From an uncultured Muribaculaceae bacterium (GTDB lineage: Bacteria; Bacillota_I; Bacilli_A; RF39; UBA660), in the NCBI GenBank assembly GCA_964439985.1, contig CAYTQE010000001.1:1-32899 (forward strand): a stretch of 32,899 bases of DNA, in the 5' to 3' direction. Numbering within the stretch: the first letter of the stretch is position 1; the number at the start of each line of letters is the position of its first letter. Positions 567 through 14,848 of this stretch are shown here, piece by piece. The translations under genes were made by a program, and so were the position numbers. The notes below the pieces were generated by a model. It did not search any database and was not told the DNA's origin. It was given only the letters and a program-made list of their open reading frames with translations.

Positions 567-1660
567 AATTCTTGAAATTCATTTTGAAAATAATCATCGG
601 TCATACCCGCAATGTAATCTATAACTTTTCTTACATCATTTGTTTCTTTTAAATATTTATCCGTTTGTTTATTTAAAAAATCTCTATATATTTTATATTT
701 AATTAAATTATGATTAACGATATATAAATTTTGTTTAAAAACTGTATTAAACATATTTTCATAATGTTTTAAATCTTGTTTAGTATTAGCTTTATAATAA
801 ATATTTCGGTAGTTAAATTTCTTTAAATCAACTATTGTTTTAAACATTTCATCACTTAACTTGATATAATTTTTATCAAAGCTATTTTCTATTATGTCTA
901 ATATAATATTATTAACTATCTGTCTATTAGAGTTACCAATTATTTTGGTTATTTCATTAGGTAGGTTATTTATATCAAAAACACCTATTTTAACAGCATC
1001 TTCAATGTCTCTACCTAGATATGCTATCATATCACTAATTCTTACAACACAACCTTCTAATGTCATAGGAACAAGTTTAGAAGCATGTTCTTCATTGTGA
1101 TAACATTGATTATAATCATCTAAAAATTCTTCTTTTGTTTTCTTTTTAGGAAAGTACTTTTTCATAGCAAATTCTCCATTATGACAAAGAATTCCATCAA
1201 GAACCTGAATACTTATATTTTTATTTTCGATGTCCATTAAAGTTCTAAGGCTTTGAACATTATGCATAAAGAATCCTTCATTATTTTCTAGACTTAATTT
1301 ATTTAAAAATTCTTCTCCAGTATGACCAAAAGGAATATGACCTAAATCATGACCAAGAGCTATAGCTTCAATTAAATCTTCGTTTAAAGATAAAGCTCTT
1401 CCAATTGTTCTAGCTATTTTACTAACTAATTGAACATGAACCATTCTTTTAGTAATATGATCATTTTCATTATTGGAAAATACTTGAGTTTTATCCATAT
1501 ATCTTGTATATGAATCACTATGAATTATTCGATCTATATCTCTAAAAAAATTTGGTCTTATATCTGGTGTAAAATCATCTAATCTAATAGACTCATTATC
1601 ATAAGTAGCATATTTGCTATACAAAGTTTCTCTTTTTAACATTATTTCTTTTATATCCAT
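545..1660 (-). CDS. dGTP triphosphohydrolase-like HD-domain phosphohydrolase
   Basis: 371-aa ORF with the HD motif HVQLVSKIARTIG...ALGHDLGHIPFGHTGEEFL, characteristic of the Dgt/dNTPase-like family. Its start overlaps the upstream gene's stop (TAATG). Confidence 0.8.
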   Translation of the reverse strand: MDIKEIMLKRETLYSKYATYDNESIRLDDFTPDIRPNFFRDIDRIIHSDSYTRYMDKTQVFSNNENDHITKRMVHVQLVSKIARTIGRALSLNEDLIEAIALGHDLGHIPFGHTGEEFLNKLSLENNEGFFMHNVQSLRTLMDIENKNISIQVLDGILCHNGEFAMKKYFPKKKTKEEFLDDYNQCYHNEEHASKLVPMTLEGCVVRISDMIAYLGRDIEDAVKIGVFDINNLPNEITKIIGNSNRQIVNNIILDIIENSFDKNYIKLSDEMFKTIVDLKKFNYRNIYYKANTKQDLKHYENMFNTVFKQNLYIVNHNLIKYKIYRDFLNKQTDKYLKETNDVRKVIDYIAGMTDDYFQNEFQELKNIKFD

Positions 1661-3567
1661 TATTCACCTAATACATAACTATAATAGTTAGTTTCTAATA
1701 TGTTTTTAGAAATAACAAATTTGTTGTAAACTAAGTTATTTATTATTTCTATATAATTATCGGGAATATCATTTTTAAATGAAGTAAAAGTATTTTTAGT
1801 AGCGTTATATTTTCCAAAATTAGTTATCCAGCTACGATCATTAAATATAATAACCCCTTCATTATCAGATAAAATATCAGTTCCCATTAAAAGTCTTGAA
1901 TCAAATTTTATTCCAAATAAATTAAGAACAGTAGGTAATATATCTAAACTACTTGAATATTTATTTATTTCTATTACATCACTCATTTGATTGTTCCAGA
2001 TTATTAAATGATTTTTATGGATATCTAATTTTTCATCTTCGATTTCCATAACTTCTTTTATTTCACTATTTTTTAATCCATATGGATAATGATCTGTACT
2101 AATAACTATGACCGTATCATCAAGTATTCCTTTTTCAGTTAGTTTCTCTATTAATGATTCAAGGGCTTTATCTAATTCAACTTGAGAAGCAATATAAGCC
2201 TTTATTGGGGTACTAAATGGTAGATCATTAACAATCTCTTTGTTTTTATAAGCCATATTATTACCACCAAAGTTATATTCAAGATGACCACTTATACTCA
2301 TATAATAAGTCATAAATTGATTATTATCACTATATAAATCAAAAGTAGCATTAATCATTTCTAAATCACTTTGTGGCCATGGTTTACAGTTCATTATTTT
2401 TTCTAATCCATTACCACATCCCATAAAATTGTAACCCATATTAGGTAATGATTTATGACGATCATAATATTTATAAGATCCATTATGATAAGCATTAGTG
2501 GTATAACCTAGTTTAGAAAATATATTACCATATGTATAAGGTAAATAATTATTGCTAGATCTAGACATACTCCAAACACTTTCTTTGGGAAGTAGACCAG
2601 TTAAATTAACATATTCTCCATCACTAGTACTAACATAATAAACAGGACTATAAAAATTATTGAATTTAAAACCATTATTAACAAGTTTATATAATGTTGG
2701 TGTTACATCAATATTAACCGCGATGGGACTAAATGCTTCTGCAGTAATATAGATTAAGTTTTTACCTTCAAAGTATCCAGTATAGTCATTTTTATTAGAA
2801 GGAGCTGTGTTATTTATATATTGATGAATATTTTTAATTGTATTATTATTTTCGTTTTCTATTAAATAATTAAAGCCAATATCTAGTTTATTATATTCAA
2901 TCTCTTTAATAATTTCTTCTACCTGATTATCGATTAAAACACTTTCTTCAAAATTAGATAGGATTCTAAAAATATCAAGTCGCATCGTAGTCATTAAACC
3001 TAAACTCTTGGCAGTTTGATTTGGAACATGTTTATTAAAATAAATATTTTTAACTGAATAAAGATGATCTTTTGCTAGAAATAAAGAAATAATACCAATT
3101 GTATAAAAAATAAACATAAAAATAGTTTTAGATGAAAGTAGTCGGTAATTAGTATCTAAAGTAATTATTTTCTTTCTAAATATAATTGTTAATAAACTTG
3201 GTATTATTAACAATATAATTGGAATTATATTATTAATAATTACTGAAAATATTTGACTAAAATATTCAAAAACTTGTCCACCATTAAATAAAGAATAAAT
3301 AGATATTATATTTCCATAAAATAAATAATTAACAAATTGCGCTATAAAAAGAATTGTTAAAAATACTATTATTCCTATAAAAAATATTTTATTATATTTA
3401 TGTTTTAAAAAGCTCGTTATTAAATCTATAAAAACACTTACAAATAAAGTAAATATTATTAAATATATAAAGTCTTTAATTAAAAAAGATTTAAAAGTAA
3501 ATAGATGATATATAGTTTCTAAATATAATAAAATTATAAAAGATAATTTAAATTTTTGCTGTTTCAT
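1660..3567 (-). CDS. LTA synthase (LtaS)-family membrane sulfatase/phosphoglycerol transferase
   Basis: Multi-TM hydrophobic N-terminus followed by an extracellular sulfatase-like domain (YITAEAFSP..., VIVISTDHYPYG). I prefer the second ATG at 3567 (MKQQKF...) because GAGGT lies 6 nt upstream; the track ORF starts at 3582. Confidence 0.78.
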   Translation of the reverse strand: MKQQKFKLSFIILLYLETIYHLFTFKSFLIKDFIYLIIFTLFVSVFIDLITSFLKHKYNKIFFIGIIVFLTILFIAQFVNYLFYGNIISIYSLFNGGQVFEYFSQIFSVIINNIIPIILLIIPSLLTIIFRKKIITLDTNYRLLSSKTIFMFIFYTIGIISLFLAKDHLYSVKNIYFNKHVPNQTAKSLGLMTTMRLDIFRILSNFEESVLIDNQVEEIIKEIEYNKLDIGFNYLIENENNNTIKNIHQYINNTAPSNKNDYTGYFEGKNLIYITAEAFSPIAVNIDVTPTLYKLVNNGFKFNNFYSPVYYVSTSDGEYVNLTGLLPKESVWSMSRSSNNYLPYTYGNIFSKLGYTTNAYHNGSYKYYDRHKSLPNMGYNFMGCGNGLEKIMNCKPWPQSDLEMINATFDLYSDNNQFMTYYMSISGHLEYNFGGNNMAYKNKEIVNDLPFSTPIKAYIASQVELDKALESLIEKLTEKGILDDTVIVISTDHYPYGLKNSEIKEVMEIEDEKLDIHKNHLIIWNNQMSDVIEINKYSSSLDILPTVLNLFGIKFDSRLLMGTDILSDNEGVIIFNDRSWITNFGKYNATKNTFTSFKNDIPDNYIEIINNLVYNKFVISKNILETNYYSYVLGE

Positions 3568-3700
3568 ACTAATACCTCGCATTAAAATTATATCATATAA
3601 TTTTATAAAAAAGGAGTAATTATTAGACCTAAATAATGGTAATAAATAAACTAATCAATATAAATTTTAAATCATACTTTACTATAGGAGCTGAAGTTAA

Positions 3701-5602
3701 GTGATAAAATGGAGTTTATCAATGATAGTTAAAAATGAAGCAGAAAATATAAGTAAATGCTTAGATTCAGTTAAAGATTTATTTGATGAAATAATAATAG
3801 TTGATACTGGGTCAACAGATAATACAAAAAGCACATTAATAAAATATACTAATAATATTTATGATTTTAATTGGATAGATGATTTTAGTGCAGCTAGAAA
3901 CTATGCATTTTCATTATGCACTAAAGATTATATTATGTGGCTTGATGCAGATGATATAATAAAAAAAGAAGATTTAATAAAGTTAAAAAGACTTAAAAAA
4001 AACATGAATTATGAGTATGATATTATAATGATGAAATATAATATCGCTTTTGATGAAATGGGTAATTCTTCTTTTTCTTATTATCGAGAAAGATTATTAA
4101 AAAATGAAAACAAATATATATGGAAAGATAGAGTCCATGAATACATTGAACTAAAAGGTAATATAAAGAAGGAAGATATTTCAATTACTCATGATAAAAA
4201 AGAGCAAAATATCAGTACCCGTAATTTAAATATTTATCAAAAAATGGAAGATAATAAAGAAATATTTACTCCCAGAAATTTATATTATTATGGGCGAGAA
4301 TTATATGACCATCAACAATATGATTTAACAATTTTAAAATTAACTGAATTTTTGAATAGTAAAAAAGGTTGGGTTGAGGATAACATCAATGCTTGTTATT
4401 TATTATCAAATTCTTATTATAATATATTATTAGAAGAAATGGCGTTAAATTTATTGTTTAAAACTTTTGAATACGATATACCTAGAAAGAAAAGCTGTTG
4501 TTTAATTGGTAATTATTTTTTAAAAAAAGAAAAATATTTAATTGCCATTTATTGGTATAAATTATCTTTGAATTTATCTAAAAATCAAAATATTAGTTTT
4601 TATGAACCTGATTATGATTATTTTATACCATATATAAATTTATGCGTTTGCTATGATAAGCTAGATAATAAACAAGAATCATTAAAATATCATCTTTTAT
4701 CTAAAAAAATAAAACCTGAAAATGAATTAGTTAAATATAATATAAAATATCGTAAATCATTAGGAATGATTTTTCAGCAATCTTCAACTCGTACTAGAGT
4801 TTCATTTGAAACAGCAATGGAACAATTAGGAGGACATGCTCAATATTTAGCTCCTGGTCAAATCCAATTAGGAGATCATGAATCAGTAACAGATACAGCT
4901 AAAGTATTAGGGCGGATGCTGGATATTATCATGGCTCGAGTAGAAAGACATAAATCAGTTATTGAACTTGCGGAAGAAGCTGGAATACCTGTTATTAACG
5001 CGATGAGTGATTATAATCATCCAACGCAAGAAGTTGGAGATATGACAACTATAATTGAACATTTACCTGCAGGTAAAAAATTAGAGGATTTAAAGATTGT
5101 TTTTGTTGGGGATGCAACTCAAGTATGTACATCTCTTGCAATGATAACAACTAAACTTGGTGCTAATTTTGTTCAATTTGGTCCAGAAGGATATCAAATA
5201 AAACCAGATGTAGCTAAACTTTGTTTAGACAATTGTGAAAAATCTGGCGGGAGCTTTTTAGTAACAGATGATTTTGATGTAGCAATTAAAAATGCAGACT
5301 TTATATATACAGATGTTTGGTACGGATTATATGAAGCAGAATTATCTTATGACGAAAGAATGGCTATATTCTATCCAAAATATCAAGTTGATATGGATAT
5401 GATGAAAGCGGCAAACCCAACTGTAAAATTTATGCATTGTTTACCTGCAAATAGAGGCGAAGAAGTTTCTGCTGAAGTAATTGATTCTGACTATTCAATA
5501 GTATTTGATGAAGCAGAAAATCGTTTAACTTCAATAAGAGCACTTTTAGTTTATTTGATGGGTAAAAAAGACGAAACTATAGAAATAATAGAAAGAAGTT
5601 AA
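3701..5602 (+). CDS. In-frame fusion ORF: family-2 glycosyltransferase with TPR-like C-terminal region, joined to N-terminally truncated putrescine carbamoyltransferase
   Basis: Residues 1 to about 350 carry GT2 motifs ([37 protein letters not shown]) and then helical TPR-like repeats. From nt ~4754 ([54 protein letters not shown]) the sequence matches putrescine carbamoyltransferase as I recall the Enterococcus enzyme. It lacks the ~40-45 residues that normally precede the STRTR motif. GTG start at 3701 with AGGAG upstream; an in-frame ATG at 3722 is an alternative. Confidence 0.75.
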
Positions 5603-5610
5603 GGAATTCT

Positions 5611-6993
5611 ATGAAAAAGAAAAAATTTAGATTAATTGATGCGATTTTAGCAACAGTATGTATTACATTAGTTGCTGAATCGGTTACACCAACAGCAGCA
5701 ATTGGTAATTCACAATATTTTTGGTGGATATTCTTACTAGCAGCTTTTTGTTTACCTTATGGCATGATTTCTGCTGAATTAGGGTCAACATTTCAAAGTG
5801 AAGGTGGAATGTATGATTGGATAAAAAGAGCATTTGGTGCTAAATGGGCATCGCGTGTTGCTTGGAACTACTGGATTAATTTCCCATTATGGATTGCATC
5901 ACTTGCAGTTGCTATTACTGATGTTATAGCTGGAATATTTAGTATTGAATTAAGTATATTTATGTTACTTATTATCCAATTAGGGTATACTTGGTTAGTT
6001 AGTTTTCTAGGTACTCAAAGAATCGGAGAAAGTAAATATATTGTTAATATTGGTACATTCTTCAAAATGGCATTTATGCTTAGTTTAGGACTATTAGGTA
6101 TTTATGTTTATATTAAAACTGGACATAGTGCTAACCCTGTTGAATCAGTAGTGGATTTACTACCAAGTTTTGACTTAGCAGGATTATCATTCTTATCAGT
6201 AATAATATTTAACTTCCTAGGTTTTGAAGTTGTAGCAACATTTACTGATGATATGGAAAATCCTAAAAAAGAAATACCAAAAGCATTAATAATTGGTGGA
6301 ACTTTAATGGCATTGTTTTATATTTTACCAGCAACTGGTGTAAATATAGCAATTGCATCATCAGAAGCTGAAGCTGCTGGAATTACGGAAAGTTTTGCAA
6401 TTCTATTAGGTAATATTGGCGTAAGCCCAGACTTTATTAGAACAATTGTAATTATAGTAGGTTTAATGTTTATTTATACAATGGTTGCAAATATTGTATC
6501 ATGGTCATTTGGAGTAAACTCTGTTGCTAAATTTAGTGCAGATGATGGAGGATTACCAAAATTATTCTCACAAACTAATAAAGCTGGAGTACCACATATG
6601 GCATCAATCTTAAATGGGGTTGTAGCAACTATTATAATAATTATTGGAGTAATTTTAGGAGAAGTAAGTGCTAGTGCTAGTAATTTATTCTGGACATTCT
6701 TCTCACTTAGTTTAGTTACTTTACTAATAAGTTACATACCATTATTTCTAGCATTTAAAAAATTAAGAAAAATTGACAATACTCCTAGAGTATATAAAAT
6801 ATCAGGCGGAAACTTTATAATTAATTTATTAACTTATATTCCAATGATATTACTAATTTTAGGAATAATATTTACAATGTTTGGTGACTTTACATCTGAA
6901 TATATAAATGCGAATTTACCATTAATTATTGGGGTAATATTATCATTTATAATTCAGGAAGTATTAGCATCAAGAGTTAAGGAGAAAAAATGA
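5611..6993 (+). CDS. aguD: APC-family amino acid permease, agmatine:putrescine antiporter
   Basis: 460-aa polytopic membrane protein with about 12 hydrophobic segments. It sits between the carbamoyltransferase and agmatine deiminase genes, as in known AgDI operons. Confidence 0.8.
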
Positions 6994-8090
6994 AGAAACT
7001 AGATACAACACCTAAAGCTGATGGCTTTAGAATGCCAGGTGAATTTGAAAAACATCGTGGCACTTATATTATTTGGCCAGAAAGACCAGATAACTGGAGA
7101 AATGGTGGAAAACCAGCTCAAAAAGCATTTGTTGATGTAGCATCTGTTATTGGAAAATATGAACCATGTACGATGTTAGTAAGTGCAGCTCAATATGATA
7201 ATGCTAGAGGAATGCTTCCTGAATATGTACGCGTTATTGAAATGAGTAATGATGATTCATGGATGCGCGATGTTGGAGCATCATTCCTTATTAATGATAA
7301 GGGAGTACTTAGAGCTTGTGACTGGTCATTTAATGCTTGGGGAGGATTAGTAGATGGATTATACTTCCCATGGGCAGAAGATGATAAAATTGCAGGGAAA
7401 ATGTGTGAACTTGAAGGCGCAGATAGATATCGTTTAGATGATTTTGTTGCTGAAGGTGGAAACATCCATGTTGATGGTGATGGAACTGCAATGGTTACTG
7501 AAGAATGTATGATGTCAGAAGGAAGAAATCCACATTTAACTAAAGAAGAACAAGAACAAATACTAAAAGATTATCTAAATGTAGAAAAAGTCTTTTGGAT
7601 ACCAAAAGGTATTTATAATGATGAAACTAATGGACATGTTGATAATATCGTAAACTTTGTTAAACCAGGAGAAGTAGTTCTTGCTTGGACAGATAATGAA
7701 AAAGATCCACAATATGCAATTAGTAAAGAAGTTCTAGAATATTTAGAAAATCAAACTGATGCTAAAGGTCGTAAATTAACTATTCATAAGTTACATGTAC
7801 CTAATCCGGTACTTATTACTAAAGAAGAAAGTGAAGGAGTAGATGCAATAGATGGTACTCTTCCTCGTGAAGAAGGAGACAGACTATCAGCATCATACGC
7901 TAACTACTATGTTGGTAATGGTTTTGTTGCACTACCAGTTTTCAATGATCCACATGATAAAGACGCTATTGAACTTATGAAAAAACTTTATCCAGATCGC
8001 ACTGTAGAACCAATCTTCGCACGTGAAATTTTACTTGGTGGTGGTAATATCCATTGTATTACTCAACAAGTACCAGATCCAAGAGGATAA
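6990..8090 (+). CDS. aguA: Agmatine deiminase
   Basis: 366 aa with [42 protein letters not shown] and C-terminal [11 protein letters not shown] (catalytic Cys motif). ATGA overlap with aguD. Confidence 0.93.
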
Positions 8091-8995
8091 TGAAAAGAAT
8101 TGTTATAGCACTTGGTGGCAATGCTTTAGGTAATACTTATTTAGAACAATTAGAATTAATAAAAAAAGCAGCAAAGGATTTATCAGAAATATTAAAAGAT
8201 AATGAAGTTATTATTACCCACGGCAATGGACCACAAGTTGGTATGATAACAAAAGCATTTACAAATAATAATATAGAAATGCCACTAGATATTTGTACCG
8301 CTATGAGTCAAGGTTATATTGGTTTTCATCTTCAAAAAAAGATTAAAGAAGTTTTAGAAGAACTTAATATAAAAAGAGATGTAATTTCAGTAGTAAGTGA
8401 AGTAATAGTAGATGAAGAAGATCCTTCATTTAAAAACCCAACTAAACCTATTGGCAAATTTTACACTGAAGAAGAAGCAAATATCTTAAGTAAACAGAAT
8501 AATGAAATATATAAAGAAGATGCTGGTAGAGGATATAGGAAAGTAGTAGCTTCTCCCAAACCTTTATCAATTAAAAATATTTGTTCTATCGAAGCTCTAC
8601 TTAAAAATAATAGTATTGTTATAGCTGGTGGTGGTGGCGGTATACCTGTACTTACTAATCCAGACTCAACAAAAGTAGAAGCTGTTATTGATAAAGATGC
8701 AACTTCAGCATTAATTGCTAAAGAATTAAATGCGGACTTATTAATAATATTAACTGCAGTAGATCAAGTAATGTTAAATTTCAATACTGAAAATGAAATT
8801 AAACTTAATGAAATTACAGTAGAAGAAATTAAAACCCATATCAAAAATGATGAATTTAAAAGTGGTAGTATGCTTCCTAAAATTGAAGCAGCACTTAACT
8901 TTACTGAAAAAACTGGTAATGAAACTATCATTACAAGTTTAGAGAACATTAACAATATTCATCTTCGTAAAGATATAACCATTATTTGTAAATAA
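8090..8995 (+). CDS. arcC: Carbamate kinase
   Basis: [14 protein letters not shown]-terminus, THGNGPQVG and DKDATSALIA motifs. The start overlaps the aguA stop (TAATG). The track ORF starting at 8054 is a 5' over-extension. Confidence 0.9.
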   Translation: MKRIVIALGGNALGNTYLEQLELIKKAAKDLSEILKDNEVIITHGNGPQVGMITKAFTNNNIEMPLDICTAMSQGYIGFHLQKKIKEVLEELNIKRDVISVVSEVIVDEEDPSFKNPTKPIGKFYTEEEANILSKQNNEIYKEDAGRGYRKVVASPKPLSIKNICSIEALLKNNSIVIAGGGGGIPVLTNPDSTKVEAVIDKDATSALIAKELNADLLIILTAVDQVMLNFNTENEIKLNEITVEEIKTHIKNDEFKSGSMLPKIEAALNFTEKTGNETIITSLENINNIHLRKDITIICK

Positions 8996-9005
8996 GTATT
9001 AAAAA

Positions 9006-9070
9006 AAATGATAACAAAATTATCATTTAGATTACAGACAAACCCAAAGTTTTTCAAACTTGGGTTTTTA
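9006..9070. terminator. Two face-to-face intrinsic terminator hairpins between the agu operon (+) and the kinase-like gene (-)
   Basis: Hairpin 1: 9006-9014 aaatgataa pairs with 9020-9028 ttatcattt and is preceded by A8, which is a T-run on the minus strand. Hairpin 2: 9041-9052 pairs with 9056-9066 (aacccaaagtt / aacttgggtt, one bulge) and is followed by tttttatttt. Confidence 0.6.
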
Positions 9071-9072
9071 TT

Positions 9073-9966
9073 TTAAAATTTTCGATTAACTTTTTTCTTT
9101 TGAATATAGTCAAATACTGAATATTGTGCTTTAATTATATTTTTATTAGAACACAATTCATCTAACGCTTCTAGAGGTAATTCATTTGGAGCACATGAAT
9201 ATAAGTTATTAAAGTAATCTAGTAACTCATTACTAACACCTAAATCTCTTAAATACTGTAAGTATGAATAAAATTGACATAGTGATAAATTATTAATTTG
9301 ATGGTGTGAAATAGTATTTAGAATCATCATTATAAAACAAAAATATTCACTATCTAAATTTGGTATATAGAAACCATCATCATTTCTTTGATATTTATAT
9401 TCAAAATTAGATATATTTTTATTAGTAGATAAATATTTAATAGGTGATGCTACATTATTAGCAATCTTACATCCATCTAAATCAACAACCCGTATTTTTT
9501 TACTATCTTTATCATATATAAAATTACCTTCATGAATATCTGATAAATAAAAATCATTATTAAAAGGTTTTGTATTATGAACTACATTTAATATTTCGCC
9601 GACTTCTTTTAAAAATCTAATCTTTTCAGATAAAGGCACTTCAAAACTGTTTAGTATAATTTGCAAGTTTTCACTATTAATATATGGCATTGAAAATCCA
9701 GCAACTTTTTTACCAACTATAACTAATTTTTCTGGCATTACTAACTCATCGATATTCATGTTATCTTTTTCATTAATCAAAGAATTTATTGTTAAGAGTT
9801 TATTACCAAAGTATACTCCTTCATCAATATAAAATATTTTTAGTAGTTTTCTCGTTATTTTGTTATCAAGTATAAATAACTTACATTCAGTATTAAAAAT
9901 ATCTTTATTTAATTCATAACTTTCAAGAGTCTTAAATTTAATTTTACTAATATTTAATACTTCCAC
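9073..9966 (-). CDS. Protein-kinase-like/APH-fold protein of unknown specificity
   Basis: 297 aa. LSDIHEGNFIYDKDSKKIRVVDLDG resembles a kinase catalytic loop (HxxN) followed by a DxD/DFG-like metal site. GTG start with GGGGA upstream. I recognised no other domain. Confidence 0.55.
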   Translation of the reverse strand: MEVLNISKIKFKTLESYELNKDIFNTECKLFILDNKITRKLLKIFYIDEGVYFGNKLLTINSLINEKDNMNIDELVMPEKLVIVGKKVAGFSMPYINSENLQIILNSFEVPLSEKIRFLKEVGEILNVVHNTKPFNNDFYLSDIHEGNFIYDKDSKKIRVVDLDGCKIANNVASPIKYLSTNKNISNFEYKYQRNDDGFYIPNLDSEYFCFIMMILNTISHHQINNLSLCQFYSYLQYLRDLGVSNELLDYFNNLYSCAPNELPLEALDELCSNKNIIKAQYSVFDYIQKKKVNRKF

Positions 9967-9990
9967 TTTTATCCCCTTTTTCTTGCGTAT

Positions 9991-10018
9991 ATAATAGCAT
10001 ATTTTTAATTTTTTGCAA
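9991..10018 (-). promoter_or_regulatory. Sigma-A-type promoter for the kinase-like gene
   Basis: On the minus strand: TTGCAA (10018-10013), 17-nt spacer with TGc, then TATTAT (9996-9991). This is an extended -10 type. Confidence 0.45.
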
Positions 10019-10080
10019 TAGCTAAAGATATTTTCCTAAATAAAAGATAATTAAGAAAATCAGTTAATATTTAATAAAAT

Positions 10081-10269
10081 AAAAAGAATTACTTTGAATA
10101 ATTCTTTTCAAATAGAGTAATTAATTGATAAATAATAAATGAAATAATTAATATAAGCATTATTCCAGTCATTACTAAAGTTAAGTTAAATACTTGAGTT
10201 CCATAAAGTATTAGATAACCAATACCAGCTTTACTAACTAAGAATTATCCCATAATAACCCCGATTAAT
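10081..10269. repeat. Direct repeat, left copy (DR-L): duplicated terminator hairpin plus 3' end of the ABC permease gene
   Basis: Aligns without gaps to 12352-12540 (offset 2271 nt) with 183 of 189 identities. Mismatches are at 10097, 10098, 10151, 10206, 10239 and 10247. Confidence 0.95.
10089..10269 (-). pseudogene. Remnant of the last ~59 codons of a NitT/TauT ABC permease gene, with an in-frame stop
   Basis: In the permease frame the copy encodes the same C-terminus as 12360-12540, except that Glu becomes TAA at 10245-10247 and Ala becomes Ser at 10095-10097. No upstream part of the gene is present. Confidence 0.85.
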
Positions 10270-10360
10270 AGCATATAGGGAAAAAAGAGTGTTCAAAAGA
10301 TTAGTTTGCAAAGTTAGATAATCGTTAAATTGAAAGTTATAAGCAAGTATGAAAGTTTGT

Positions 10361-10389
10361 TTGACAAAAGTACGCATTTTTGATATTTT
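10361..10389 (+). promoter_or_regulatory. Strong sigma-A-type promoter of the peptide/radical-SAM cassette
   Basis: TTGACA (10361-10366), 17-nt spacer ending in TGa, then TATTTT (10384-10389). AAGAGGA ribosome-binding site lies before the ATG at 10411. Confidence 0.6.
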
Positions 10390-10410
10390 AAATGAAAGAA
10401 AAGAGGATAT

Positions 10411-10626
10411 ATGGAAAATATAGAAAAAATGGATTTACAGTCTTTAAAATTATTAAAAGTATATTTATCACAATCTTCAACTAAAAATGAGTTTCTTGGT
10501 TTTGGGCATGATAATGGGCATGATAATAGTGGAGGTCACCCAGATTATCATAATGATTCTCATGATAATACTCCAGGAATGAAATTTAATGTAAGAAATG
10601 AAAATAGCATTTCAATCAAAAGATGA
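10411..10626 (+). CDS. Putative RiPP precursor peptide, Cys-free, His/Asp/Asn repeat core
   Basis: 71 aa: helical leader-like N-terminus (MENIEKMDLQSLKLLKVYLSQSSTKNEFLGFG), core GHDNGHDNSGGHPDYHNDSHDN (nt 10507-10569), then a 18-aa tail. Its stop overlaps the radical SAM start (ATGA at 10623). Confidence 0.7.
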   Translation: MENIEKMDLQSLKLLKVYLSQSSTKNEFLGFGHDNGHDNSGGHPDYHNDSHDNTPGMKFNVRNENSISIKR

Positions 10627-11714
10627 GACAGATTAACACACTTATTAAGCCGACTCATGAATGTAATATGAGATGTAAATATTGTTTTCATGAACAATAT
10701 GGTTATAAAAATTCTATATTAGATATTGATAAATTAAAAAAATATTTAAATTTGCTATCTATTGAATATGATTTTATAAATATAATTTGGCATGGTGGAG
10801 AACCGCTGATGGTTCCGTTAGATTATTATGAGGAAATATATGACCATTGTGAGAAATTAAATTCAAGATTTTTATTTACTATTCAGACCAATGGCTCACT
10901 AATTACGCAAAAGAATATAGATTTTTTTAAAGAAAGACAAACAAATTTTGGGCTTTCTTTTGATGGATTAAAAAATGAATATACTCGTTCTCATACTGAA
11001 GAGATAAAGTTTAATATAAAATTATTACAAAAAAACAATTTTAATCCAGGAGCAATACTTGTTGTGAATAATAGTAATGTGTCTGATTTAATTGATGAAT
11101 ACAAATATTTTGATTCATTAGGATTGAGTATGAAACTTAATCCTATGTTTAGTGATGGGGCTGCAAAATTGCACCCAGAGTTAGCCTTAGACCCTGATGA
11201 ATATATCGAAAAATTCGTAATTTTTTTTAAATACTGGTCAACTGATTCAAATGGTAAGATAAATGTTGCAACTTGTAATGAACTAACTAATTTAATAATA
11301 AATGAACACTCAGGAGTATGTACATTTAATTCTTGTTTAACTAAATGGTTATGTTTAGATTCTTCTGCAAACATATACCCTTGTGATAGATTGTGTTCTT
11401 CTGAATATCTCTTAGGAAATGTTGAGAACGTTTCTTCAATTAAAAATCTTTTTATTAGTGAAAATTTTATAGAATTATTAAAATCTAGTATAAATCGTAG
11501 GGAAAATTGTATTAAGATATGTGATTTTTATAAAAATTGTTACTCTGGTTGTAATGCTAATGCTTTTTTAGGTGTTAGTGATGATTACGAAAACGGAGTT
11601 TCTTGTTATATTCAAAAAGGCATTCTTGAAGGTATTAAAGATTATGTACTTAATAGTTTAGAAAACCATAAAACTTTAAATCCTACTTATGAAAAAATAT
11701 TGAAAAAGAAATAA
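10623..11714 (+). CDS. Radical SAM enzyme with C-terminal SPASM-type auxiliary cluster domain (peptide maturase-like)
   Basis: CNMRCKYC (CX3CX2C) at residues 14-21, GGEPLM SAM-binding motif, and a Cys-rich C-terminus (CTFNSC...C...YPCDRLC ... CIKICDFYKNCYSGC) matching the SPASM/anSME-like pattern. Confidence 0.9.
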   Translation: MRQINTLIKPTHECNMRCKYCFHEQYGYKNSILDIDKLKKYLNLLSIEYDFINIIWHGGEPLMVPLDYYEEIYDHCEKLNSRFLFTIQTNGSLITQKNIDFFKERQTNFGLSFDGLKNEYTRSHTEEIKFNIKLLQKNNFNPGAILVVNNSNVSDLIDEYKYFDSLGLSMKLNPMFSDGAAKLHPELALDPDEYIEKFVIFFKYWSTDSNGKINVATCNELTNLIINEHSGVCTFNSCLTKWLCLDSSANIYPCDRLCSSEYLLGNVENVSSIKNLFISENFIELLKSSINRRENCIKICDFYKNCYSGCNANAFLGVSDDYENGVSCYIQKGILEGIKDYVLNSLENHKTLNPTYEKILKKK

Positions 11715-11757
11715 TATCTTACGTTGAGGATACTTGATTTTATTTAGGAGATAGAAT

Positions 11758-12318
11758 ATGAAATATGTTTATCATGGAAGTCAAAAACAAAATTTAAAAA
11801 AAATTACTAAAAGAAAAAGCACTCATGGACAAGAGTGGGTTTATGCTACTAGTTCCAAAGTAATAGCTACGATTTTTATTAGCAATAAAGCAAGTGATTT
11901 AAATTATTATCTTGGTGGTAAAGGTACAAATGAATCACCAATTATTTTAGTTGAAAGAAAAATAGACATGTTTAAAAATATATTCAATCTTTCAGGATCT
12001 TTATATAGTTTAAGCAGTAAAAATTTCTTATCAAATAAAACAGGTTGGTCTGCTGAAGTAATTAGTGAATATGATGAAGATGTTATTGAAGAAGAGCATA
12101 TAGGCAATGTTTACGATAAACTTGTAGATTTAAATAATAAAAAAGAGTTAAAATTATATTTATATCCAAATAGACCTAATTTTCTTCCATTAGATAATAG
12201 TGATCTTATTCCTAAGGTTAAAAAATGGGAAAAAGCAGGTTTTGATATAGAAATTTTTTTAGAAATTTATCCTGAATTAAAAGAAAAATATAATTCATAT
12301 ACAAATGACGAGATATAA
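11758..12318 (+). CDS. Hypothetical 186-aa protein, third gene of the cassette
   Basis: AGGAGA ribosome-binding site 7 nt upstream, same strand, 43 nt after the radical SAM gene. No signal peptide or TM segment. N-terminal YHGS...EWVYATSS; I do not recognise a family. Confidence 0.6.
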   Translation: MKYVYHGSQKQNLKKITKRKSTHGQEWVYATSSKVIATIFISNKASDLNYYLGGKGTNESPIILVERKIDMFKNIFNLSGSLYSLSSKNFLSNKTGWSAEVISEYDEDVIEEEHIGNVYDKLVDLNNKKELKLYLYPNRPNFLPLDNSDLIPKVKKWEKAGFDIEIFLEIYPELKEKYNSYTNDEI

Positions 12319-12351
12319 AGCGTGATTATGTATTTAATATTGTGATAAACC

Positions 12352-12380
12352 AAAAAGAATTACTTTGCGTAATTCTTTTC
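12352..12380. terminator. Bidirectional intrinsic terminator shared by the cassette (+) and the ABC operon (-)
   Basis: An 11-bp stem (12353-12363 aaaagaattac pairs with 12369-12379 gtaattctttt) with loop tttgc and A and T tracts on both sides. A 10-bp version is kept in DR-L at 10082-10108. Confidence 0.6.
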
Positions 12381-12540
12381 AAATAGAGTAATTAATTGAT
12401 AAATAATAAATGAAATAATTAGTATAAGCATTATTCCAGTCATTACTAAAGTTAAGTTAAATACTTGAGTTCCATATAGTATTAGATAACCAATACCAGC
12501 TTTACTAACCAAGAATTCTCCCATAATAACCCCGATTAAT
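12352..12540. repeat. Direct repeat, right copy (DR-R): terminator hairpin plus the intact 3' end of the ABC permease gene
   Basis: Partner of 10081-10269 (183 of 189 identities). It is contiguous with the full-length permease ORF. Confidence 0.95.
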
Positions 12541-13118
12541 GACATTGAAATATTTAATTTTAAACTTGATATAATAGTCTCTTTGTTGTGTGGTAATACA
12601 AGTTTAGTTAATATTTGATAATTGGTAGCTTTAAAAGATTTAAATAATTTTATTTTATAAGGATCGGTATTAATTAATCCATTATATATTGAAACTAATG
12701 TTACTATTGTATTGATAAGTAGGCTCATAACTATAATTGACTTCACATTAGCGCCTAACCAAATTATTAATAAAGGACCTAATGAAACTTTTGGTAAACT
12801 ATTGATTAATGTTAGAAAAGGATCACAAATTTTTTTTAAAGTAGGAAATACATAAAACAGTAGTGCTATTGTAAAACCGATTAAAGTACCAAGTCCAAAA
12901 GATATGAAGATTTCTTTTAAAGTTACCCATATATGAATCCATAAATTATTATTAATATATAAATCATATAAACACTTAATTATTTTAGATGGACTTGAAA
13001 AGATAAAAGAATTTATAATTCCATATTTACTTAATAATTCCCAGGTCAATATAAATTGACAAGTAATGAATATTTGGGTTATTATTATAAATATTTTTTT
13101 TCTCTTAATATTCTTCAA
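12360..13118 (-). CDS. ABC transporter permease, NitT/TauT (SsuC-like) family
   Basis: 252 aa with about 6 TM segments and an EAA-like loop region (LINSLPKVSLGPLLIIWLG). TTG start. Lies in an operon with the ATPase and binding protein. Confidence 0.82.
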   Translation of the reverse strand: MKNIKRKKIFIIITQIFITCQFILTWELLSKYGIINSFIFSSPSKIIKCLYDLYINNNLWIHIWVTLKEIFISFGLGTLIGFTIALLFYVFPTLKKICDPFLTLINSLPKVSLGPLLIIWLGANVKSIIVMSLLINTIVTLVSIYNGLINTDPYKIKLFKSFKATNYQILTKLVLPHNKETIISSLKLNISMSLIGVIMGEFLVSKAGIGYLILYGTQVFNLTLVMTGIMLILIISFIIYQLITLFEKNYAK

Positions 13119-13131
13119 ATATTTGATTTGT

Positions 13132-13878
13132 TCAATTGAAGTTTTTATCTAAATCACTCCAAACTAAATCATAATAATTATTAAATAAAGTATTTTTTCT
13201 GTTTTCAGAAGGAATACCTCTATTTTTAAAATTGATTTTAATTTCTTTTTTTACTTTAGCTGGTCTTTTTGATAATATAATAACTCGGTCACACATTGAA
13301 ACACATTCGGCTATATCGTGAGAAATTAATATAGTAGTAACATTAGTGTTTTTAAGAAGTTTATAAATATCGTCTCCTATTGTTAATCTTGTAACATAAT
13401 CAAGAGCAGATAATGGTTCATCAAGTAAAATAATATCTGGTTTGGTAGCAAGTGTTCTTACCAGCGCTACTCTTTGTCTCATACCACCTGATAAATTATC
13501 AGGATAAGTTTCTAAAAAGTTTTCTAAGCCAAAACTAATTAAAAGAGTTTTTACATATTCGATATTTTCTTTAGTTTTAATTTCATTTATTTCAAGCCCT
13601 AAGCATGCATTATCTAAAACATTAAGCCAGGGAAGAAGGGCATCACTTTGTAACATATAACTAAAAGTATGCCCGTTATTTTTAATTTCACCATTGGTTT
13701 TTTCTTCTAAACCAGATAATATATTTAACAAAGTACTTTTACCACAGCCTGAAGATCCAACAATTCCAATAATTTCATTCTTGTATACATCAAATGATAT
13801 ATCTTTAATAGCTACTACTTCACCAGAAGTAGTATGGAATGTCTTGGCTAAATTTTTAATCGTCAAAATTTTATTCAT
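13132..13878 (-). CDS. ABC transporter ATP-binding protein, NitT/TauT family
   Basis: Walker A GSSGCGKST, signature LSGGMRQRVALVRTL, Walker B ILLDEP. I prefer the ATG at 13878; the track start at 13884 is TTG. Confidence 0.9.
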   Translation of the reverse strand: MNKILTIKNLAKTFHTTSGEVVAIKDISFDVYKNEIIGIVGSSGCGKSTLLNILSGLEEKTNGEIKNNGHTFSYMLQSDALLPWLNVLDNACLGLEINEIKTKENIEYVKTLLISFGLENFLETYPDNLSGGMRQRVALVRTLATKPDIILLDEPLSALDYVTRLTIGDDIYKLLKNTNVTTILISHDIAECVSMCDRVIILSKRPAKVKKEIKINFKNRGIPSENRKNTLFNNYYDLVWSDLDKNFN

Positions 13879-14848
13879 TAACAATTAAATCTTGATAGGG
13901 AACATATCTTTTAATAAATCCACCATCAATCATTATATCTTCAAGATTTTCAAACATTTTTTCTGTAATAACAGTATTTTCTAGCCAAGAATCAACTTCC
14001 TTATAACGATTTACAATTTTAGTTAAATCATTAAGTGATGTATCTGGAAATTGTTTAAGTATTGTTTTAGCTATTTCTTCGGCATTATTATTTTTAACGA
14101 AATCTAGTGCTTCATTAAGTGCTGATCTAAAGCTATTGATTACTTCATTATTATTTTCAATAAAACTCTTTTTAGCATTAAAAGCAGTATATGGTACTTC
14201 TCCAGAATATAAACCGATGCTTGCTACAACATAGCCAAGACCTTCTTTTTCTAATTTGGTAGCATTAGGTTCAAAAAGATTTACAAAATCACCTTGTCCA
14301 GATAAAAATGCGCTTGTTAGATTTGCAAAATCTACAGAATCGTTTATTTTAACTCCATTAATATCAGCTTTTTTTAAAGCGTTAGTAAAGTTTAAAATAG
14401 GCATTCCACCAACTCTACCAGCGATAACTTCTTTATTAATTAAATCATTTAAATTAAAATTTTCTATTTTTTCTCTTGAAACAATAAATTGCCCATCTCT
14501 TTTTGTTAAACCAGCAAATGTTTGAACAAAATCTTTTACTTTTTCTTCATAAACATAAATAGTTGCTTCTGGACCACAAAAACCAATTTCAACATCTCCA
14601 GATAAAACTGCAGCAACAACATTATTAGCGCCACTTGTTAATATTAAATCAATGTTTATTCCATTTTCTTCAAAATAACCTTTTTCAATTGCTACATAAA
14701 ATGGTGCATAAAATGGACTGTGTGTCACCTCAGCTACTTTAACAGTTCTAATGTTAGTATCATCTGTTTTTGCAGTATATTTTACAGCAAAGATACCAGT
14801 TGCAATTATAATTAAACCTAATATTACATATAATAATATTTTTTTCAT
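13871..14848 (-). CDS. ABC transporter substrate-binding protein, NMT1/THI5-like (SsuA-like)
   Basis: N-terminal membrane anchor or signal, then a periplasmic-binding-protein-like sequence (FYVAIEKGYFEENGI...). GGAGGAGG ribosome-binding site. First gene of the three-gene operon. Confidence 0.78.
   Translation of the reverse strand: MKKILLYVILGLIIIATGIFAVKYTAKTDDTNIRTVKVAEVTHSPFYAPFYVAIEKGYFEENGINIDLILTSGANNVVAAVLSGDVEIGFCGPEATIYVYEEKVKDFVQTFAGLTKRDGQFIVSREKIENFNLNDLINKEVIAGRVGGMPILNFTNALKKADINGVKINDSVDFANLTSAFLSGQGDFVNLFEPNATKLEKEGLGYVVASIGLYSGEVPYTAFNAKKSFIENNNEVINSFRSALNEALDFVKNNNAEEIAKTILKQFPDTSLNDLTKIVNRYKEVDSWLENTVITEKMFENLEDIMIDGGFIKRYVPYQDLIVNE

Follow-up and report, generated by a model that had tools for sequence, protein, structure and literature searches.

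How does a set of three small genes come to lie between two copies of the end of a transporter gene, when no integrase or transposase is encoded anywhere near it? The question is raised by a stretch of 32,899 nucleotides (nt) of contig CAYTQE010000001.1 (assembly GCA_964439985.1; the whole stretch is called the window below) from an uncultured Muribaculaceae bacterium that is placed by GTDB in Bacillota_I, RF39, UBA660. In it, a radical S-adenosylmethionine (SAM) peptide cassette is bracketed by a 189-nt direct repeat that consists of the 3' end and terminator of an ATP-binding cassette (ABC) permease gene. This permease 3' end serves repeatedly, and without a recombinase, as a landing pad for small accessory, mostly phage-defence, cassettes, and the duplications may have arisen by Campbell-type insertion.

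The duplicated permease end in the window

The two copies align over 10081-10269 and 12352-12540 with 183 of 189 identities and zero gaps, as obtained by repeat search, MAFFT alignment and base-by-base comparison; including weak trailing similarity, the repeat family covers 10074-10274 and 12345-12545 at a spacing of 2271. A repeat scan of all 32.9 kb found no second direct repeat of at least 60 nt in the window, which excludes chance as the origin of the pair. The gene to which the right copy belongs encodes an intact permease of 252 amino acids (aa) of the BPD_transp_1 family, and its 3' end is the target of the insertion, while the left copy corresponds to permease residues 192-252 (tblastn). 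The parts of the repeat pair are:

10081-10269, minus strand: left copy or orphan, the displaced permease terminator, stop codon and last 59 codons, joined to no gene (repeat comparison)
10082-10108: orphan hairpin, originally the terminator between the permease and a kinase-like gene (inverted repeat and folding)
10245-10247, minus strand: TAA nonsense codon in the orphan, GAA (Glu201) in the intact copy (codon comparison)
12352-12540, minus strand: right copy, the functional permease 3' end and terminator, contiguous with the open reading frame (ORF) 12360-13118 (repeat comparison)
12353-12379, both strands: bidirectional terminator hairpin serving the convergent 186-aa gene of the cassette and the permease (-9.5 kcal/mol on the plus strand, -11.8 on the minus strand)

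Both hairpins are AT-rich and overlap the stop codons (10089-10091 and 12360-12362). Their folds reach -9.5 to -11.8 kcal/mol (z -2.6 to -4.1) on both strands, except for the plus strand of the orphan, where a different helix is the minimum-energy fold (-6.9 kcal/mol, z -1.4; the minus strand gives -10.1 kcal/mol, z -3.6). The six positions at which the left and right copies differ are 10097, 10098, 10151, 10206, 10239 and 10247. Read in the permease frame, one change is GCA/TCA (Ala/Ser), four are synonymous (TAC/TAT for Tyr and CTA/TTA, CTA/CTT and TTG/TTA for Leu) and one is the nonsense change GAA/TAA. The 2082 bp between the copies hold a promoter-like site, a precursor gene, a radical SAM gene and the 186-aa gene, and nothing more. 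The repeat length and identity given by the original prediction were thus reproduced exactly; folding and comparison confirmed that each copy starts at a terminator hairpin and covers the stop and the last ~59 codons, codon analysis bore out the intact right copy, the orphaned left copy with its Glu-to-TAA change and the classes of the mismatches, and the content of the insert is as had been described. A diversity-generating retroelement with template and variable repeats was rejected for this pair: a reverse transcriptase is missing from the window, and the bias towards adenine falls on the wrong strand, the orphan having A at five of the six mismatches on the permease antisense strand, which is consistent with AT-biased decay.

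That the duplication might be an artefact of assembly, as the original prediction had allowed, was not borne out. The NCBI metagenome contig LFRM01086497.1 (L005) spans window positions 9747-12535 at 99.4% identity without gaps, both copies included, and since it reproduces the structure independently, the arrangement is not an assembly artefact. Its two copies differ from each other at 11 positions, and five of the six left/right differences are common to the window and L005 strains, so that the duplication is older than the split of these two strains. No two neighbouring copy-specific bases are separated by more than 55 nt, and the outermost ones lie within 16 nt (left) and 22 nt (right) of the unique flanks, so that ~100-nt reads suffice to phase each copy to its two flanks. 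Four Logan contigs from other runs, which carry an identical kinase-like gene, all end at window position 10128, that is 30 nt beyond the last copy-distinguishing base (10098), which means that their terminal 31 bases are the first stretch common to both copies. Such a break is the pattern expected when a short-k-mer assembly graph branches at a repeat, with k itself an assumption, and it is compatible with, without being diagnostic of, a circular intermediate carrying one repeat copy. Exact-protein look-ups of the window's radical SAM protein, 186-aa protein and permease returned no match.

Recurrence of the duplication and mobility of the cassette

A permease profile search yielded 80 species-representative and 80 metagenome loci, all from RF39-like metagenome-assembled genomes (MAGs) of gut 'Bacilli' or 'Tenericutes'. 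The last 70 residues of each permease were compared against the permease's own locus. Among the ~113 loci that extend 3 kb or more downstream, this revealed orphans of the permease 3' end in five other species groups, each downstream and in the same orientation, which makes six with the window. The duplication is recurrent and not a one-off, given these five further species groups with the same upstream boundary and different cargo between the copies:

L011/L017: one Fic gene (SoFic, 1e-40)
L027/L107: RhuM and Shedu SduA
L070: RhuM / PDC-S05
L113/L115: a Schlafen-AlbA2/HATPase_c_4 protein
L121: RhuM

The cargo measures 1.1-3.1 kb in the relatives and 2.08 kb in the window, and every cargo is antiparallel to the permease, so that its 3' end faces the hairpin of the intact gene. 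Counted in nt before the end of the stop codon, the upstream boundary lies at 180 in the window, 176 in L017, ~165 in L027, 179 in L070, ~175 in L113 and 172 in L121, which places all of them at Leu194-Val197, in the invariant SLIGVIMGEF motif and within ~15 nt around Gly196. The downstream boundary lies just past the host's own terminator hairpin in the window, L070, L121 and L027; the copies of L017 are identical for 156 nt and then run into different C-terminal tails and terminators, the divergence setting in 21 nt before the stop. Copies are 84-100% identical within a genome (100% across 172 nt in L121) and 75-88% identical between genomes, and each orphan is closest to the allele of its own host or of a sister species. 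An orphan without inserted genes, which the original prediction had held would mark an old local duplication unrelated to the cassette, was found at none of the related loci. A motif (ATATA...GGTG) retained by the orphans as a scar or core upstream of Gly196 was considered and rejected as not significant after local alignment against 2000 random windows per locus (p 0.14-0.75).

The cargo is horizontally mobile. Between L070 and L027 the RhuM genes share 85.9% DNA identity and the adjoining ABC operons 68.6%. Within the L113 group, the operons of which are 95-97% identical, the lipoprotein gene follows the permease terminator directly in the strains L026 and L035; in L113 and L115 there are cargo, orphan, a Fic gene and a gene of 90 aa, and L119 contains other genes together with a remnant of the orphan's terminator. 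The gene-attached copy of L113 is native (173/175 against the empty strains), and its orphan is 84% identical, with indels. In the orphan-less strains L032, L108, L114 and L117 of this group, two adjacent repeat units of ~195 nt stand at about 10876-11261, between the permease and the downstream lipoprotein gene; they are 86-89% identical to L113 14091-14285 and 14384-14578. Directly beyond the orphan of L070 (12280-13870) lie genes for a LigD-like ATP-dependent DNA ligase and Ku, an end-joining system beside the insertion site.

All these structures lie within a conserved frame made of a 554-aa gene, the binding protein-ATPase-permease operon, a variable interval and an LtaS-like sulfatase followed by an HD hydrolase. 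The corresponding features of the window are:

12360-14848, minus strand: NitT/TauT-type ABC operon with permease (12360-13118), ATPase (13132-13884) and NMT1-type binding protein (13871-14848) (Pfam, synteny)
9073-9966, minus strand: kinase-like gene of 297 aa, the neighbour of the permease before insertion (weak ABC1 match; synteny with L018)
3701-12351: variable region with GT2, agmatine-deiminase cluster, kinase-like gene, orphan and cassette (comparison with relatives), ending at the conserved LtaS-like sulfatase gene (1660-3582)

Across relatives, the interval ranges from 0.07 to 10.9 kb and differs in content:

L021, L022: about 70-115 nt, empty
L012: two small genes
L018: kinase-like (APH) gene, carbamate kinase and GT2
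L017: Fic and a defence island
Window: 8.6 kb, with the content given above

In L018, the nearest syntenic relative with a permease that is 85% identical, an APH-type kinase gene stands 24 nt from a single permease end and is followed by carbamate kinase, with neither cassette nor orphan at the permease end. This comes close to the empty site that had been predicted, a kinase-like gene beside one permease end, although a conspecific one was not found: a scan of the genome collection with the kinase-like protein gave no relative, and so no conspecific empty site was retrieved.

The cassette itself is accessory and horizontally mobile, as had been claimed, since its three genes occur together and in the same order in at least four genomic contexts and are missing from this permease site in all of the ~150 related loci. 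The contexts are:

Window: left, the kinase-like gene (via the orphan); right, the ABC permease
L007-L010: left, a sigma-70 factor; right, FemAB
L178-L180: left, a C39-like peptidase; right, UvrB
L181-L183: left, rplQ; right, an ORF6N gene

Homology between the contexts is confined to the coding part (window 10507-12290), and a mobile element with defined conserved ends was rejected as a description of the cassette for want of conserved termini between contexts. The check for the cassette elsewhere, with or without the same flanks, thus found it in at least three other contexts, all with neighbours other than the permease; one context has a duplication of another target. In L181-L183, the cassette lies between direct repeats of 119 nt that differ at a single base (L181 5612-5730 and 7670-7788). 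The repeat takes in the hairpin of the rplQ terminator, a promoter and a ribosome-binding site, and it runs into the ORF6N gene as far as the eighth codon. An orphan ORF6N start is contained in the left copy, and the right copy supplies the terminator of the cassette; like the repeat of the window, this one starts at a terminator hairpin in cassette orientation. Flanking duplications are not universal for the cassette, as none is found around it in L007 or L178. Across 2.39 Mb of loci, comparable dispersed repeats are limited to the permease site, the L181-type site and two unrelated, closely spaced cases.

In agreement with the original prediction, Pfam and related protein searches found no integrase or transposase in the window. 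The 186-aa protein, considered as a hidden recombinase, was rejected as one, its confident structural model matching only an ADP-ribosyltransferase-like fold, and that weakly. The search for tyrosine recombinases by phmmer with E. coli IntE, a distant probe, found none in the 2484 ORFs (120 aa or longer) of 182 related loci and the window (the E. coli control locus discussed below being excluded), and in the same loci no serine recombinase stands beside the site, while some carry them elsewhere. No integrase is among the top 25 of 118 Pfam families in 85 representative downstream neighbours, a survey in which a single weak match could be hidden, although the IntE search speaks against one; the most frequent families include Fic, RhuM and collagen/BclA. 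Integrase-bearing integrative and conjugative elements (ICEs), integrative and mobilisable elements (IMEs) or prophages are likewise absent from the site in ~150 loci up to 10 kb downstream, a search in which an element with its distal attachment (att) site more than 10 kb away but its integrase beside the permease would have shown. At the insert, no terminal inverted repeats were found, nor the transposase, defined ends or short target-site duplication of a transposon or insertion sequence. A scan of viral contigs with the permease profile gave one uninformative locus and no phage-borne attP-like copy. An rve-type transposase is encoded within the hot spot of L119 (15468-16430). Large serine recombinases occur in the upstream flank of L151-L153, L156 and L159 (ORFs at ~1.9-8.4 kb, with the permease at ~10 kb) and are separated by several kb from the 3' end of the permease.

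A proposed Campbell-type insertion and its alternatives

What a Campbell integration leaves behind is found here, namely an insert flanked by two copies of one chromosomal segment, of which one is contiguous with its gene and one is truncated. The explanation that we favour, with about even confidence, is a duplicative insertion by Campbell-type homologous recombination at a recurrent hot spot. The donor would have been a circular, or a re-circularised linear, DNA made up of the 2.08-kb cassette and about 190 nt of permease 3' end, and one ordinary, probably RecA-dependent, homologous crossover between this donor and the chromosomal permease 3' end would have produced the observed order. The right copy would have kept the permease intact, with its hairpin then terminating both the permease and the convergent cassette, and the displaced, decaying orphan would have remained beside the old neighbour, the kinase-like gene. 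Clade-wide, the last ~59 codons and the terminator would act as a portable homology arm, small and mostly phage-defence cassettes being inserted or exchanged between the arm and its duplicate without an element-encoded recombinase. The position of the boundary near Gly196 may itself be set by homology, as exchange between diverged alleles would tend to end at the onset of a conserved block: in 127 distinct alleles, the longest unbroken block conserved at the DNA level runs from Leu194/Gly196 to about Met226, and it is probably because this block begins there, just 3' of Ser193, a six-fold-degenerate codon that switches between TCN and AGY, that the duplications do so too.

Insertion-duplication mutagenesis offers a close parallel, with direct repeats that flank foreign DNA, one copy intact and one truncated, and no need for an enzyme of the element, although the case described here is natural and recurs at one boundary in six species groups. 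Experiments in E. coli showed that introduced DNA in which one end was homologous to the chromosome was partly degraded and closed into a circle again, and that one crossover then integrated it in 56 of 60 clones, with duplications of the homologous end of 109-950 bp in the sequenced clones (PMC3240628); the repeats described here (119-200 nt) fall within that range. The Campbell-type footprint claimed for the window stands in so far as the duplication is real, is tied to inserted accessory DNA and has one intact and one truncated copy, whereas recombination as its mechanism is something that we infer.

Several observations weigh against this explanation. Neither a circle nor a scar nor a conspecific empty site was seen for the organism of the window. 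The upstream boundary, common within ~15 nt to six groups, is tighter than a simple homology limit predicts, the more so as codons 187-192 are also fairly conserved among the 127 alleles. The presence of the same host-specific terminator in both copies in four genomes requires donors of the same species, homogenisation or a duplication of recipient DNA, and the pattern in L113, with its native attached copy, is more easily reconciled with an orphan that is old or was imported than with a single crossover in the recent past. Finally, Campbell-type insertion leaves the origin of the first circle, in which target and cassette were joined, unexplained.

The differences between the copies say less about their origin than had been thought. 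Between the window and L005, the functional copy has six synonymous differences within 94 nt (12369-12462), the orphan one and the 334-nt kinase flank none, while the cassette has 9/2082 and the strains are otherwise 99.6% identical. Such packing of six synonymous changes marks the functional copy as a recombination mosaic. The window's functional copy matches the orphan at five of the six sites at which window and L005 differ, which suggests either gene conversion by the orphan or a foreign stretch imported into L005. Polarised with outgroups, the six left/right differences comprise the nonsense change, which is derived in the orphan since all outgroup permeases have G at the Glu201 site, two synonymous changes that are derived in the functional copy, and ambiguous ones for the rest. 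An origin of the two copies from different alleles, as had been read from the synonymous bias, is therefore possible and weakly supported but not required, with derived changes present in both copies and later allelic exchange, as the mosaic indicates, explaining the bias at least as well.

Of the alternatives to Campbell-type insertion, the one that survives best, although we regard it as unlikely, is a site-specific reaction, carried out by a recombinase acting in trans or left over from a decayed element of the kind called CIME (cis-mobilisable element), with an attB core at about Ser193-Ile198, a 3' end and terminator borne by the element and an integrase encoded elsewhere or lost. The closest known analogue of the structure is e14/phage 21 in the icd gene of E. 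coli, here without an integrase. In both systems, the last ~165-190 nt of a gene are duplicated through stop and terminator with mostly synonymous differences and a sharp upstream boundary, and one copy completes the gene while the other is a displaced pseudogene (icdC in E. coli) at the far end of the insert. When E. coli K-12 icd/icdC was analysed as a control, the same anatomy was obtained: a 165-nt duplicate (153/165 identical, with 9 synonymous and 2 non-synonymous codon changes) with a sharp upstream edge and similarity that runs through the terminator, intE/xisE lying inside the 15.2-kb e14. A boundary common within ~15 nt to independent insertions with different cargo, for which the icd prophages offer a parallel, and the tails of L017, where the attached tail is atypical and that of the orphan typical of the family, as expected if the attached copy was borne by an element, also speak for such a reaction. 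Accretion of ICEs, IMEs and CIMEs at the 3' ends of target genes is on record in streptococci (PMC5704250), and CIMEs resemble the present inserts in that they are small cargo modules devoid of integration genes and lie between direct repeats of att type in which a conserved gene's end is contained. The repeats of CIMEs, however, are short att sites, and in other strains the site is taken by cognate elements that bear an integrase (PMC5704250), none of which were found here. Although the duplicated 3' end and the common crossover position are shared with e14 in all six groups, the integrase and excisionase inside the element are not: the insert of the window is 2.08 kb long, none of the seven instances holds a recombinase, no integrase-bearing full-size element was seen in the ~150 loci, no tyrosine recombinase in 2.4 Mb, and the cargo is merely 1.1-3.1 kb. 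Moreover, in L113 it is the attached copy that is native and the orphan that diverges, the 119-nt duplication of an unrelated target in L181 is not expected of a site-specific enzyme, and the sequence upstream of the boundary holds no significant shared core or arm motif.

Improbable, in our estimate, is a single old duplication of the permease 3' end in an ancestor, with the copies kept alike by gene conversion and the cargo inserted or replaced between them later on. It would most simply account for a boundary common to species with 60-92% permease identity, and it agrees with copies that are more alike within than between genomes, with the near-identical interiors and divergent edges of the copies in L017 and L070, which fit conversion, with the age of the L113 orphan (84% identity, indels) and with the five of six left/right differences that precede the split of the two strains. 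The price would be that over 100 lineages had lost the duplicate and six scattered ones had kept it. Strain-level presence and absence in the L113 group, RhuM genes of L070 and L027 that are far more similar than the flanking genes, and an independent duplication of a different target around the same cassette family in L181 argue against it as well, as do host-specific terminators that are identical to the last base, where conversion should fail at the edges of homology.

Still less can be said for a long target-site duplication of recipient DNA, in which staggered breaks ~120-200 nt apart, one of them at the terminator hairpin, would have been filled in after a hairpin-directed or end-joining reaction; we consider it highly improbable. 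The unrelated targets of the window and L181, with duplications that begin exactly at a terminator hairpin in cassette orientation, the host-specific terminator in both copies of the window, L070, L121 and L027, the complete identity of the L121 copies over 172 nt and the Ku and LigD genes beside the site in L070 would all suit it. To our knowledge, however, no bacterial insertion mechanism yields duplications of this length, the cassette has no conserved termini and no enzyme candidate is at hand, and the tails of L017 differ between the copies. Single-crossover integration, on the other hand, already gives such duplications experimentally (PMC3240628). Least credible by far is the mis-threading into the chromosome of a strain mixture or of an episomal circle of 2271 bp made up of the cassette and one permease fragment. 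The short-read metagenomic origin of the data, the Logan breaks within the repeat and the lack of a record of the exact proteins elsewhere speak for it; against it stand the same order in the independent L005 with its 11 inter-copy differences, the adequacy of ~100-nt reads for phasing and the fact that, of the five other structures, two are each found in a pair of contigs with separate names (L027/L107 and L113/L115), although the L027 MAG could have been binned from the assembly L107.

The genes of the window and the wider meaning of the site

The genes of the cassette are:

10270-10410, plus strand: upstream region with a promoter-like, TG-extended TTGACA-17-TATTTT at 10361-10389 (promoter scan)
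10411-10626, plus strand: ORF of a 71-aa precursor peptide (ORF list and tblastn)
10623-11714, plus strand: radical SAM/SPASM peptide maturase of 363 aa (PF04055, 2.3e-16)
11758-12318, plus strand: conserved cassette protein of 186 aa without a Pfam family (277 homologues)

The upstream region (10270-10410) has no homology to those of the cassette in its other contexts. The core of the precursor is rich in His, Asp and Asn and contains repeats (GHDNGHDNSGGHPDYHNDSHDNTPG). Homologous precursors stand upstream of the radical SAM gene in L005 and L007-L010, and a 75-aa ORF occupies the position in L178-L183, where the match is by position; the precursor of L007 (3864-4247) has 127 aa, an internal 110-nt duplication having given it two core units. 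With a short precursor directly upstream, a maturase with CxxxCxxC, SPASM-type matches and conservation as a unit, the genes have the features of a radical SAM/SPASM pathway for a ribosomally synthesised and post-translationally modified peptide (RiPP). The best named match of the maturase is the dynobactin maturase DynA (DynA-like 3.9e-47, far under its cut-off), followed by anaerobic sulfatase maturase (6e-42), and since all NCBIfam matches are below the family cut-offs, it belongs to no named family; its 188 homologues include ~60 clusters at 55-68% identity, all of them metagenomic. The very confident model of the 186-aa protein (predicted local distance difference test, pLDDT, 92.4) has a sole and weak structural resemblance, to the rifampin ADP-ribosyltransferase Arr (E 0.015, prob 0.96) and other proteins of the ART fold. 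Aligned homologues (n=26) are 57-79% identical, with His6, Tyr29/Tyr50 and Glu66/Glu100 invariant or nearly so, and to judge from the model the protein may act in ADP-ribosylation or another modification of the peptide, or may have a role in immunity.

Elsewhere in the variable interval, window 4631-8995 encodes a complete agmatine-deiminase-type cluster (carbamoyltransferase, amino-acid permease, PAD_porph deiminase and carbamate kinase), which, but for the carbamate kinase of L018, is not present in the relatives examined. At 4747-4763, the window lacks 232 nt of an otherwise 100%-identical Logan contig (L001 5383-5614). The missing segment covers the stop codon of GT2, a terminator and a promoter as well as the carbamoyltransferase gene up to about codon 35. 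Window 3701-5602 is consequently an in-frame GT2::OTCase fusion ORF of 633 aa, the product of either a deletion at ATAT/TAT microhomology or an assembly collapse.

Variable intervals between conserved genes are typical of defence hot spots flanked by core genes, and the interval between the permease and the LtaS-like sulfatase, which holds Fic, RhuM/PDC-S05, Shedu, Schlafen-like or RloB/AAA_21 genes depending on the genome, resembles them. We know of no description of such hot spots in which a duplicated 3' gene end brackets the individual cassettes. A broader proposal, which we put forward as speculative and rather unlikely, is that RF39-like Bacilli possess a recombinase-less or trans-acting route of insertion that duplicates ~120-200 nt from a terminator hairpin, and that the permease segment from Gly196 to the terminator would be a dedicated pad on which defence and RiPP cassettes are swapped between species, a counterpart, guided by homology or by hairpins, of an integron site.

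For the biology of these gut bacteria with reduced genomes, the site means that tiny modules, such as a RiPP cassette or single phage-defence genes, can enter and leave a core locus without a mobility gene and with the target gene undamaged. The duplicated gene end is an easily searched signature, a 3' end with its terminator repeated 1-3 kb downstream, by which cassettes and new cargo may be found in uncultured lineages. If the fixed boundary should be enzymatic rather than limited by homology, it would define a new integration system.

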